Assembly (NCBI GenBank): GCA_048884785.1
Contig: JBHLQM010000063.1
Coordinates: 1 to 21,128 of the forward strand
DNA length: 21,128 nt
DNA from: Candidatus Thorarchaeota archaeon
Lineage (GTDB): Archaea > Asgardarchaeota > Thorarchaeia > Thorarchaeales > Thorarchaeaceae
Reading direction: 5' to 3'
A model generated the notes under the pieces. The model worked only from the letters and a program-made list of their open reading frames with translations. It had not been told where the DNA came from and did not search any database. Position 1 is the stretch's first letter. Every line of letters starts with the position of its first letter. The translations under genes and the position numbers were made by a program. Shown piece after piece: positions 12,596-16,231 of the stretch.

Positions 12596-13314
12596 GAAAG
12601 CGAGTCCTCGTCCAACGCAAGGGAAGGGGCACTACGCAATGGCGCAGCCCCCGACATAAGAAGATTGCAGCAGCGAAGCACCCCAAGTGGGCACCAGACA
12701 AGACGTACTACGGTGTTATTGAAGGTCTCCTGCACGAATCCGGAAGAGGCGCACCTCTCGCCAAAGTCAAGTACGAGGGCGAAAAGGGCTATCACTACAT
12801 GGCCGCTCCAGAAGGAGCCTACGTTGGCCAGAATATCGAATGTGGTGAAGAAGCCACCCTAGCAACTGGCAACACACTCATGCTTGAATACATCCCAGAG
12901 GGTACTCCGATATTCAATATCGAAGGCGCCCCCGGAGATGGAGGTAAGTACGTGAGGTCATCCGGTCTAACAGCCACGATAATCTCTATCGACAAGCAAA
13001 AAGCCATTGTGCGGCTTCCAAGTGGAACCCAGAAGACCTTCAGTCCACGCTGTCGAGCTACCATTGGAATTGTTGCTGGCGGGGGTCGTGCTGAAAAGCC
13101 ATTCCTCAAGGCAGGAGCCGTGTGGCATCATGTTAAGGGCAAAGCCAGAAAATGGCCTGTTGTCCGTGGTGCTGCCATGAATGCAGCCTCACACCCTCAC
13201 GGTGGAGGAAGCCATCAATCCCCTGGTAGACCTAGCACAGTGAGCCGACACGCACCACCCGGTCGTAAAGTCGGTAACATTGCTGCAAGGAGAACCGGGC
13301 GTAAAAGTAAGTGA
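12592..13314 (+). CDS. rpl2: 50S ribosomal protein uL2 (start ATA 12592, or GTG 12583)
   Basis: GKRVLVQRKGRG, GRGAPLA, ATIGIVAGGGR, WPVVRGAAMNAASHPHGGG, PGRKVG. ATA occupies the expected Met position, with AGGAGG 8 nt upstream. Confidence 0.95.
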   Translation: MGKRVLVQRKGRGTTQWRSPRHKKIAAAKHPKWAPDKTYYGVIEGLLHESGRGAPLAKVKYEGEKGYHYMAAPEGAYVGQNIECGEEATLATGNTLMLEYIPEGTPIFNIEGAPGDGGKYVRSSGLTATIISIDKQKAIVRLPSGTQKTFSPRCRATIGIVAGGGRAEKPFLKAGAVWHHVKGKARKWPVVRGAAMNAASHPHGGGSHQSPGRPSTVSRHAPPGRKVGNIAARRTGRKSK

Positions 13315-13345
13315 AAGGCTCCTAGGAGCCTTTCCTCATTTCTTT
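13313..13345 (+). terminator. Hairpin plus T-rich terminator after rpl2
   Basis: Perfect 22-bp palindrome GAAAGGCTCCT-AGGAGCCTTTC (13313-13334) followed by CTCATTTCTTTTT. Confidence 0.75.
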
Positions 13346-13543
13346 TTAAGAATCATTTAGTTGCTCAACCTCTCTTTCAACTTCTGCCTTCAGTTTGGAT
13401 TTGAATTTGCAGACAGCTTTATAGCCTTTGGAAACAACATGGATATGCCTTACGCCTCTTCGTGGTGGAACGTGGAGTATGCTAGACAAAGGTTAGGAGC
13501 TTATTTCAACTTACTGAATAGAACATCAGAAGGTGAAAAAGAG

Positions 13544-14680
13544 ATGGAGAAAAAATACAGATTGCCTGTAATAGGTATCTGTTTGGTTTTCATATCAACA
13601 GGTTTTGTTGTTGCACTCTCTCAGCCATTTGACAGTCCCTTGGTTGTTGTCTTTGGCGATTCTAAAGCTGAAGATGCAGCTCTGGCAATCCTATTAGATG
13701 AGATGCCAAACAGTTTAGTCGTACAATATGATAGCTTTGCCTATGATTTTTTCAAAATGAAATCAATTGGTGTAGCTATATTGATTGGGCATGGGAATGA
13801 AGCAGGGATTTTTCAAAACGGAAAATTGGTTCAAGCCCAAGAGATTGTAGCAGAAATATCGAATACGCCAGCAAGAAGGATCATGATAACTGCATGCAAT
13901 TCTAAGGCAATTGCTGACCTTGATGAATCAGGTCGGAGTTTTGGATTTTCACATTATGTCGATGCAGAGCTTGCAGCATTTGAAACTGCAATTAGAGTTC
14001 AGATATTCTACAATATGCGTGATGCTGCTTGGAAAACATTTGAGAAGTTTCTTGATGTGCTTTCAACAAAGTTTTCCGACGAAACTAGTATCCTCCCACT
14101 AATGCCCATAGAAGGAGGAGGAGGCGGTGGCGGTGGCGGAACTCCACCTCCGACGCACAGCCTTAGTGGTTCTGAGCTATTTAATGCTGCTATGGTATTT
14201 GCTCTCGGATGTGTATTTGCCCTTGTTGGAATCGCCATTTCAATTGCTACTTCCAAATTAGGGGCTGCAATCTCCTCAAGATTAGGTTCAATTGGTTCTT
14301 CAGGTGGTATTCTAAGTAAGATCTACAACTTCTTCATAACCATTGGTCCAGCAGGGATAGGGAGTCTTTTGGCATTAGTAAACACTCTATTTGGAGGTAT
14401 ACTTAGTCTTGCAGGTGCATGGCTCACTGCCAGTGTTGACATAGTCGCATCTTGGATAGCAGCTATGGATATAGTTGAATGGATGATCTTCCTCGGTCTG
14501 ACTGGTATCGAGGTGATACTAGCAATCCTGACTGCAGGTGCAGAACCACTAGCCAGGCTTCAGATTGGAATCCTTGTTGCAATCATGAATGCTGCATTAA
14601 TTGCGATTTCTGATTATAATGACTACAACGATGTACCCTGTCAGTCAGTGATGCAGGCGGCATCCCAATTGCTTGGGTAA
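13544..14680 (+). CDS. Exported clan-CD (caspase/gingipain/CHAT-like) cysteine-protease-domain protein with Gly linker and hydrophobic helical C-terminal domain; candidate self-processing toxin
   Basis: AGGTGA SD at 13531 before ATG 13544. Signal-like MEKKYRLPVIGICLVFISTGFVVALS. AILIGHG (His83) and IMITACNS (Cys118), G9-TPPPT linker, then about 175 aa of Gly/Ala/Ile/Leu-rich helices. Confidence 0.65.
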   Translation: MEKKYRLPVIGICLVFISTGFVVALSQPFDSPLVVVFGDSKAEDAALAILLDEMPNSLVVQYDSFAYDFFKMKSIGVAILIGHGNEAGIFQNGKLVQAQEIVAEISNTPARRIMITACNSKAIADLDESGRSFGFSHYVDAELAAFETAIRVQIFYNMRDAAWKTFEKFLDVLSTKFSDETSILPLMPIEGGGGGGGGGTPPPTHSLSGSELFNAAMVFALGCVFALVGIAISIATSKLGAAISSRLGSIGSSGGILSKIYNFFITIGPAGIGSLLALVNTLFGGILSLAGAWLTASVDIVASWIAAMDIVEWMIFLGLTGIEVILAILTAGAEPLARLQIGILVAIMNAALIAISDYNDYNDVPCQSVMQAASQLLG

Positions 14681-14692
14681 TTTTCTTTCTAG

Positions 14693-14717
14693 AACTGCCA
14701 ACATATAGTTGGCAGTT
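14693..14717. terminator. Hairpin between convergent genes
   Basis: AACTGCCAAC-ATATA-GTTGGCAGTT, a 10-bp perfect stem followed by TCTTCTTTCTT. Confidence 0.7.
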
Positions 14718-14726
14718 TCTTCTTTC

Positions 14727-15458: not shown

Positions 15459-15517
15459 ATAGTCCAGAAACATGAAAACCCTTATCTTCTTCTTATTAAC
15501 GAATTGACTTGGTTAAG

Positions 15518-15823
15518 ATGGGCACCTATATTGAGGAGATTCCCTTTCCTTATGGTGAAGAAGATGCCAGAATTCGAATAAATAAGTGGAGAGAGAATCA
15601 CGGGAAGGATTTCAAGCTTGAGAAAAGGGGATCTAATTGGATCTTGATAAAGCACAAGACCATGCATTTCATCATCACCTTTCTTCCTGAAGTAGTCAAA
15701 ATAGAGGGCTGGGTGGGTGGAGTTACTAAGTACTCGATAAGTCCCGATGCCTTTGTAGGAGCTTACGCCCGAAGAAAAGGATGGAAAGTATATGAAACAC
15801 TTAGAGCCACATTTATCGATTAA
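15518..15823 (+). CDS. Small hypothetical alpha/beta protein (101 aa)
   Basis: ORF with protein-like amphipathic pattern, divergent from the neighbouring membrane-protein gene. No family recognised. Confidence 0.65.
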   Translation: MGTYIEEIPFPYGEEDARIRINKWRENHGKDFKLEKRGSNWILIKHKTMHFIITFLPEVVKIEGWVGGVTKYSISPDAFVGAYARRKGWKVYETLRATFID

Positions 15824-15955: not shown

Positions 15956-16024
15956 GTGAAATATAGACGAGCCGAAAAATGTGGGTTTAGAGTTTCTGAG
16001 ATATCACTAGGTTCAGGGACTACG
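15956..16024 (+). pseudogene. 5' stub of an aldo/keto reductase
   Basis: GTG-KYRRAEKCGFRVSEISLGSGTT matches the typical AKR N-terminus MxYRRLGKSGLKVSEISLGSW. TTATATATAG box upstream (15917-26). Similarity ends abruptly at the rpl2 remnant. Confidence 0.65.
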
Positions 16025-16029
16025 GTGAA

Positions 16030-16231
16030 AAGTACATCCTGTCTTCAGGGCTTACTGTTACAATCATATCCACAGACAAGGCAAAGTCAACGATCCGTCT
16101 TCTAAGTGGTGTTCAGAAGGTTTTCAGTCCAGGCTGTAGAGCTACGATTGGAATTGTGGCCGATGGTGGACGGCAGGAGAAACCATTCCTCAAAAACTGG
16201 AGCAGTCTGGCATCACACTCGTGGCAAAGCA
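16030..16231 (+). pseudogene. rpl2: Second, partial, frameshifted copy of rpl2
   Basis: KYILSSGLTVTIISTDKAKSTIRLLSGVQKVFSPGCRATIGIVADGGRQEKPFLK[+1 A]TGAVWHHTRGKA aligns to rpl2 12946-13146 with 50/67 identical residues by manual count. No start codon. Confidence 0.93.

Follow-up and report, generated by a model that had tools for sequence, protein, structure and literature searches.

The first 21,128 nucleotides of contig JBHLQM010000063.1 (assembly GCA_048884785.1), hereafter called the window, come from Candidatus Thorarchaeota archaeon and contain, at positions 13544-14680 of the forward strand, a gene for a 378-amino-acid (aa) protein, P0001. We report here that this protein belongs to an Asgard-wide family of small modular membrane proteins that is previously undescribed in the literature searched. 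In its members a conserved cysteine protease head, modelled with a clan CD fold and predicted to face the outside of the cell, is followed by membrane tails of several unrelated types, and the neighbouring partner gene co-varies with the tail and not with the head. The reading that we favour, with an assurance only slightly above even, is that of a polymorphic effector-partner system built on a clan CD head, either toxin-immunity-like or serving kin recognition.

An earlier note, made from the letters of the window alone, had described the product as a candidate exported self-cleaving toxin with a signal-like N-terminus, a caspase/gingipain-like protease, a poly-Gly linker and a hydrophobic helical payload. 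The list of open reading frames (ORFs) and its translation show a frame running from ATG to stop, with the AGGTGA box and the motifs at the places indicated in that note. His83 lies in AILIGHG (codon 13790-13792) and Cys118 lies 35 residues further on in IMITACNS (codon 13895-13897); PIE-G9-TPPPT occupies residues 188-204, and DYNDYND stands near the end of the protein. The attribution to an Asgard archaeon agrees with the NCBI names attached to homologues and related loci (Thorarchaeota and Promethearchaeota).

Exchange of tails and partner genes across the family

Homologues were collected by an exhaustive HMMER search, which gave 140 representative clusters of mostly 320-400 aa, and conservation was counted in an alignment of 111 diverse full-length homologues. 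Tails were typed by profile iteration, using reversed-sequence decoys as control. The family was found in 111 of the 301 Asgard genomes sampled (42 of 70 genera), and it is present more than once in several genomes, one of which gave as many as 9 matches at E ≤0.001. Sixty-six tails were joined in a group named type A, that of the window's protein, and the others fell into at least seven further unrelated types and singletons, giving at least eight types in total. When mapped on the head tree, tail type requires 28 changes versus a minimum of 8, and sister heads carry unrelated tails.

The position of the break can be followed in closely related pairs. P0035 and P0039 are 73-93% identical (in 30-column windows) from residue 1 to the poly-Gly run, and 3-23% identical thereafter. 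In another clade the break falls just after an IDA motif, and a junction Leu persists inside an otherwise unalignable region. Paralogues within the same genome (G010, G039 and G093) have heads that are 80-100% identical and tails that are unrelated, with the break near the linker. Aligned as DNA, the two G010 genes show 86-100% identity over a segment that begins some 50 nt before the start codon and takes in the initial 250 nt of the gene; in the 180 nt preceding this segment identity is 65-86%, and beyond it identity drops to about 60%, reaching background within 500 nt. Judged from these sequences, genes of the family exchange the part that begins near the catalytic Cys, together with the adjacent partner gene.

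Immediately downstream of most genes of the family lies a small gene whose product has, as a rule, two to six transmembrane helices; the nine downstream partner proteins that were scanned matched no known family. Type-B tails from two genomes are 81% identical over their full length and their partners 76% identical, while type-D tails from two genomes are 48% identical and their partners 30% identical (E 3e-35). In G093, tandem type-B and type-D genes begin with head sequences that are 90-100% identical, and both their tails and their partners are unrelated. In these alignments the partner gene co-varies with the tail, not with the head.

The clearest cassette locus of the family is a 20-kb region of another genome (L051, G075:C4:892500-912499), which contains one full-length gene and four 5'-truncated orphan copies. 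All four are truncated at one point, about 15 aa before the catalytic Cys; they differ from one another in their tails, and every one is accompanied by a separate ORF for a small membrane protein. The window itself contains no orphan cassettes. Head remnants (L037, L040 and L041) and frameshifted copies are also frequent, and were seen beside intact genes in several Thorarchaeota metagenome-assembled genomes. Taken together, the exchange between heads and tails, the co-varying partners and the orphan cassettes constitute an evolutionary pattern characteristic of antagonism or recognition systems.

A search for the same protease head with variable C-termini after the linker was the test suggested in the earlier note, and such proteins were found, with co-varying partners and orphan cassettes. 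The same note took an invariant C-terminal domain as a sign that its reading was wrong. Family-wide the C-terminal domain varies, but in the window's own well-supported clade of the head tree it is constant in type, since 15 of 15 representatives have a type-A tail. A plain membrane-anchored protease with a conserved anchor had been our first reading, from the five closest homologues, and was dropped after the family-wide analysis of the tails. As a separate observation, very long ORFs of 988-1871 aa (L017 = G025:C22, G013:C17 and G020:C7) also begin with this protease head; those scanned had no Pfam match.

Protease head, junction and membrane tail

Cys118 is present in all 111 aligned members and His83 in 110 of them. 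Gly84 (105/111), Gly88 (106/111), Ser120 (104/111) and Asp140 (105/111) are nearly as constant, and conservation on this scale argues that the head motifs are not due to chance. The whole protein, modelled by AlphaFold2 with the family alignment, reached a predicted local distance difference test score (pLDDT) of 87, and the head alone (residues 28-190) a pLDDT of 97.8 with a predicted TM-score (pTM) of 0.92. Foldseek returned only marginal E-values for the whole-protein model, because the tail dilutes the score. With the head alone the best matches were all clan CD peptidases. They included the SAVED-CHAT protein 8tl0 (E 1.4e-4, TM-score 0.60-0.64), the MARTX cysteine protease domains (CPDs) of V. 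cholerae and V. vulnificus (3gcd/3eeb/8yjc, E 6e-4, with 19% identity, the highest of any match), a C11 enzyme, legumain, caspase-7, Csx29 and GPI8.

A structure search independent of Foldseek also placed 8tl0_A at the top (Z 12.1, 150 of 163 residues aligned), two units above the generic alpha/beta (Rossmann-like) folds, which reached Z ≤10.1. ESM Atlas models of CHAT clusters matched the head at TM-scores of 0.63-0.72, and hhalign against seven Asgard CHAT domains gave a weak alignment (P 0.016) in which the catalytic His and Cys of the head coincide with those of CHAT. In clan CD the catalytic His ends strand 3 and the Cys ends strand 4 of a parallel sheet (PMC4357240). In the head model strand 77-81 precedes His83 and strand 112-116 precedes Cys118, these being the third and fourth core strands. 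As modelled, the head has the clan CD (caspase-hemoglobinase) fold that the earlier note had proposed; the gingipain-like character it had added was not borne out, the nearest fold being CHAT.

Sequence profiles assign the head to neither of the two closest families. The 111 members matched 31 Pfam families at E ≤0.1, and neither PF12770 (CHAT) nor PF11713 (C80) was among the 25 of these that were listed. The PF12770 model does detect seven true CHAT domains in related Asgard genomes. A search of the window's own genome with PF11713 gave no match, and control genomes were equally silent. The family profile met a C80 sequence of the PDB only at E 1.6-1.8, over 32 residues of the first strand-helix-strand unit; PDB sequence searches with the single protein and two family profiles gave chance-level matches only, and scans of the 378-aa protein against Pfam, NCBIfam and PADLOC gave no match. 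After strand 5 the model has two helices, at residues 141-155 and 159-177, and not the beta-flap of C80, which contributes to the InsP6 (inositol hexakisphosphate) pocket and replaces helices 4 and 5 (PMC4357240). The lack of a CHAT or C80 match in Pfam and the helices after strand 5 point to a new CHAT-like clan CD family that is neither CHAT nor C80, and the head is probably a separate family of this kind. The head, in which the catalytic dyad is kept, is a putative peptidase.

The likeness to CHAT proteins (PF12770, such as 8tl0, Csx29/craspase, separase and DdvA) consists of the top structural match, with TM-scores of 0.6-0.7, and of the His-Gly and Ala/Ser-Cys motifs, which follow consecutive parallel strands in the same register. 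Unlike them, the head has only about 160 aa (versus about 290 in CHAT), is not accompanied by a TPR, SAVED or other sensor domain, and lies between transmembrane segments, continuing into exchangeable membrane tails.

The signal-like N-terminus of the earlier note was confirmed as to its hydrophobic core of 19 residues, which close homologues share; the helix may stay on the protein as a signal anchor and not be cut off as a signal peptide. An N-terminal hydrophobic helix is present in 94 of the 111 members, with a mean of 3.66 K/R residues before it and 0.34 after it. This positive-inside bias places the N-terminus inside and, by prediction, the head outside the cell. Immunoglobulin (Ig)-like or fibronectin type III (fn3) domains found in some long relatives fit an outward-facing head.

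Leu186, which lies in the junction between head and linker, is found in 104 of 111 members and recurs ahead of unrelated tails. The model is confident over residues 178-187 (pLDDT 97) and shows a beta-bridge at residue 185, and the junction Leu is predicted to be docked on the head. C80 domains, such as those of MARTX and of the clostridial toxins TcdA/TcdB, autoprocess their toxins by cutting after Leu. This preference parallels the conserved Leu186, and it adds to the similarity of fold noted above (E 6e-4, top identity 19%). The C80 domains differ in that the MARTX site lies N-terminal to the protease, whereas the candidate site here is C-terminal to the head; the two long helices after strand 5 are a further difference, and in an archaeal host activation by InsP6 is not expected. 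In DdvA a CHAT domain outside the cytoplasm adjoins a flexible linker, which it has been proposed to cut in an autoproteolytic reaction (PMC11506125). Together with the Leu preference of C80, this proposal makes cleavage of the linker by the head plausible.

The tail of the window's protein has four to five segments, distributed across 170 residues, in which the mean Kyte-Doolittle value is 1.6-2.6; this argues for an integral membrane domain rather than a soluble pore-former bundle. Conserved residues of type A are E211, E312, W313, E323 and R338. The tail closes with an acidic stretch, DYNDYND-VPCQS, predicted to be cytoplasmic, in which DYNDYND is followed by VPCQSVMQAASQLLG. The colicin- or bacteriocin-like helical bundle expected in the earlier note was rejected on these grounds, the tail being neither a soluble bundle with one hidden hydrophobic hairpin nor a short amphipathic peptide with a leader. 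Among the 25 families listed for the 111 members there was no colicin family, and Bacteriocin_IIc matched two members only (E 0.054). The ESM Atlas, searched with the tail, contained no credible look-alike (scores ≤0.84, TM-score ≤0.36).

The window's copy, its partner and its insertion

The features of the locus are listed in Table 1.

Table 1. Features of the head-tail gene and its surroundings in the window.
Feature	Positions	Strand	Basis
Terminator-like hairpin directly after the rpl2 stop, 9-bp stem and T-rich tail; left edge of the AT-richer inserted block	13313..13334	both	
Shine-Dalgarno-like AGGTGA, 7 nt 5' of the ATG	13531..13536	+	sequence
CDS of the head-linker-tail membrane protein P0001, 378 aa	13544..14680	+	translation, homologue N-termini
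N-terminal signal-anchor helix, residues 1-26, predicted N-in	13544..13621	+	hydrophobicity, model, charge bias
Clan CD (CHAT/caspase-like) cysteine protease head, residues 28-190, predicted extracytoplasmic	13625..14113	+	head model, fold matches, conservation
Junction Leu186 (in ILPLMPIE), candidate docking or P1 residue	14099..14101	+	conservation, model
Flexible linker G9-TPPPT, residues 191-204	14114..14155	+	pLDDT <50 at 192-199; recombination breakpoint in relatives
Type-A tail, residues 205-378, four to five predicted transmembrane helices	14156..14677	+	hydrophobicity, model, alignment
Terminator-like hairpin, 11-bp, between the two convergent genes	14692..14718	.	
Convergent partner gene, 232 aa	14727..15425	-	adjoins the orthologous head-tail gene in three genera
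Soluble 104-aa ORF, divergent from the 232-aa partner gene	15509..15823	+	
Degenerate remnant of rpl2, 72% identical in aa sequence to its residues 120-177; close to the block's right edge	16024..16197	+	

The public gene call for this locus (P0002) has 413 aa, 35 residues more than P0001, which implies a start at ATG 13439. The frame does remain open for 61 codons 5' of ATG 13544 (13361-13543), and homologues lack this extension. Close homologues open with M-x-K-K immediately before the first hydrophobic helix, which supports ATG 13544 over the longer call, and the public start is probably too early.

The order of genes is rpL3-rpL4-rpL23-rpL2, the head-tail gene, the convergent 232-aa gene, the 104-aa ORF, a gene for a ribbon-helix-helix (RHH) protein, and FtsZ. 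The GC content is 0.36-0.44 in the stretch with the head-tail gene versus 0.50-0.52 in the upstream ribosomal genes, and this drop and the two hairpins of Table 1 agree with the AT-richer block between terminators of the earlier note. Three congeners lack a block of about 3 kb and have RHH and/or FtsZ directly after rpl2, which indicates that the window from 13315 to about 16340 is an insertion. From the degenerate fragment near its right edge, the insertion looks as if it had carried or duplicated part of rpl2. Another contig of the same genome (C149:1-168, L048) opens with the last 56 codons of rpl2 (96% aa identity), followed by unrelated genes; this may reflect strain heterogeneity or an alternative assembly path at the locus. 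The window's genome is rated at 5.4% contamination.

In the 232-aa partner, two to three transmembrane helices separate two soluble domains, of which the N-terminal one bears a PTKTDRxHYF motif. The partner is kept, in convergent orientation, beside the orthologous head-tail gene in G014 and G011, which belong to other genera. The flanking genes differ, so that the head-tail gene and its partner appear to travel together. An obligatory link between the convergent partner and the protease gene was considered and rejected, since the partner's family also occurs alone. The congener G004 carries a corresponding divergent pair of 104-aa ORF and 232-aa partner (L019 4869-5932) in a locus that lacks the protease gene, and the 232-aa partner may belong to a second, independent two-gene unit. 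Scans of both proteins against Pfam, NCBIfam and PADLOC gave nothing useful, nor did such scans of eight long relatives of the family.

G014 also has a second copy of the window's clade (L014, G014:C1:433000-443000), which lies just downstream of a gene for a Vps4-like MIT-AAA ATPase and of two small genes resembling those of neighbourhoods of the endosomal sorting complex required for transport (ESCRT), and which converges on the gene for aspartyl-tRNA synthetase. Its link to ESCRT genes may be due to chance.

Mechanism, comparison with known systems and alternatives

Several traits are shared with bacterial polymorphic toxins (CDI, Rhs, MafB and others; Zhang et al. 2012). These have a conserved N-terminus to which unrelated C-terminal modules are joined by exchange at a junction, a partner gene that co-varies with the C-terminus, and arrays of 5'-truncated orphan cassettes. 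The presence of a caspase-like peptidase just before the variable module is also common to both, and in polymorphic toxin loci such peptidases are thought to release the module (PMC3482391). The differences are considerable. The proteins described here are tiny, at about 350 aa, and contain neither repeats nor a filament or secretion-system domain; their variable modules are integral-membrane by prediction and have no known toxin fold. Furthermore, the orphans begin inside the protease domain, and the window's partner is convergent. Among archaea, the VARTIG proteins of the Thermococcales (PMC8416519) are likewise surface proteins whose C-terminal part is hypervariable and whose downstream genes vary, and their authors read them as polymorphic-toxin-like or as acting in self/non-self recognition (PMC8416519). 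VARTIG differs in having Ig domains and no protease, in its unrelated sequences and in its lineage. The literature searched yielded no description of the head-tail family, nor of any polymorphic toxin system in Thorarchaeota.

If the family does form an effector-partner system, its members might work as follows. An N-in signal anchor would hold the minimal CHAT/caspase-like head outside the cell, where the head would bind the junction Leu and cut at or near the linker. The cut would free or activate a membrane-active tail, and the cognate partner would neutralise or recognise this tail within the membrane. In this scheme cleavage of the linker and toxicity of the tail are inferences.

Several observations weigh against such a system, and they concern first the tail itself. 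Being strongly hydrophobic and polytopic, the tails are expected to be inserted by Sec into the producer's own membrane, and the proteins have a Sec-type signal anchor only, with no delivery apparatus or trafficking domain. A tail might reach other cells by vesicles or fusion, or might act on its own producer. Since any route of a polytopic tail to another cell would be conjectural, we hold the weapon or recognition reading at little better than even. Moreover, no known toxin, immunity or defence family in Pfam, NCBIfam or PADLOC matched any of the tails or partners scanned. Other observations come from the window's own lineage: no second copy of the family was found in its genome, and in comparison with P0003 the tail (62% identical) is better kept than the head (52%), the tail being conserved in this clade. 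The window's partner is convergent and not co-transcribed, its family is found without the protease gene, and the second G014 copy has no adjacent partner. Finally, gene conversion of heads among old paralogues, without recent exchange of cassettes, could give part of the head-versus-tail pattern.

In its most specific form the effector-partner reading would make the family a home-grown Asgard polymorphic weapon or kin-recognition system, whose membrane effectors would be activated by a CHAT-like ectodomain cutting after the junction Leu, would pass between cells by fusion, protrusions or vesicles, and would be neutralised by cognate membrane partners. We regard this full version as unlikely, at about one chance in four.

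An explanation much less probable than the effector-partner reading is that of a transmembrane sensor acting by regulated proteolysis and not of a weapon, in which the outward CHAT-like head would cut its own linker on a signal and thereby change the state of the tail. The conserved acidic cytoplasmic tail end and the partner would then relay the signal inward, and the variable tails would represent different outputs. DdvA offers a possible precedent, being a Myxococcus anti-sigma factor with a periplasmic CHAT domain beside a flexible linker to a transmembrane helix. The tail of the window's clade keeps charged in-membrane residues and a DYxDxND-VPC end, the 232-aa partner is mostly cytoplasmic, and a gene for an RHH regulator lies nearby. 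However, the RHH-FtsZ pair is also present in congeners without the insertion, so that RHH is not part of the module, and the head-tail gene is not linked to a DNA-binding, sigma or kinase partner. Orphan arrays, co-variation of tail and partner, pseudogenised copies and a patchy, multi-copy spread are typical of conflict and not of signalling.

Still more doubtful is that the protein is an ordinary membrane-tethered surface protease for envelope proteins, with the tail as a fast-drifting anchor and the heads homogenised by gene conversion. The strictly conserved catalytic residues, the predicted outward orientation of the head and the Ig-like or fn3 surface domains on some long relatives would suit this explanation, as would the conservative clade of the window and the one copy found in its genome. 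A mere anchor leaves unexplained why partners co-vary with tails, why orphans truncated at a fixed point have partner ORFs of their own, why Leu186 is retained before unrelated tails, and why the window's tail is better conserved than its head.

A self-directed, membrane-permeabilising tail (for abortive infection, programmed death or addiction), restrained by the partner and unleashed by the head, seems the least probable of these alternatives. In its favour, glycine-zipper families are matched by the tails of a few members, and a weak holin-like match was seen for one; the modules are mobile, the window's copy being an insertion, and a conserved activator with variable effectors is common in defence systems. 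Against it, an extracellular sensing head would be unusual for virus sensing, PADLOC gave no match, and no link to known defence genes was seen in the loci examined.

Conflict and self/non-self systems of archaea, and notably of Asgard archaea, are almost unknown experimentally. The family described here, which is widespread and unannotated, joins a CHAT/caspase-like protease, exchangeable membrane modules and cognate partners, and whether or not its interpretation as a weapon is wrong, the exchange of head-tail-partner cassettes still needs explaining. If the effector-partner mechanism holds, it would add to the peptidases a new clan CD family and to the Asgard archaea a polymorphic effector-partner system absent from the literature searched. 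It would also provide a compact case of protease-gated membrane effectors, and would bear on the origins of caspase-controlled cell death.

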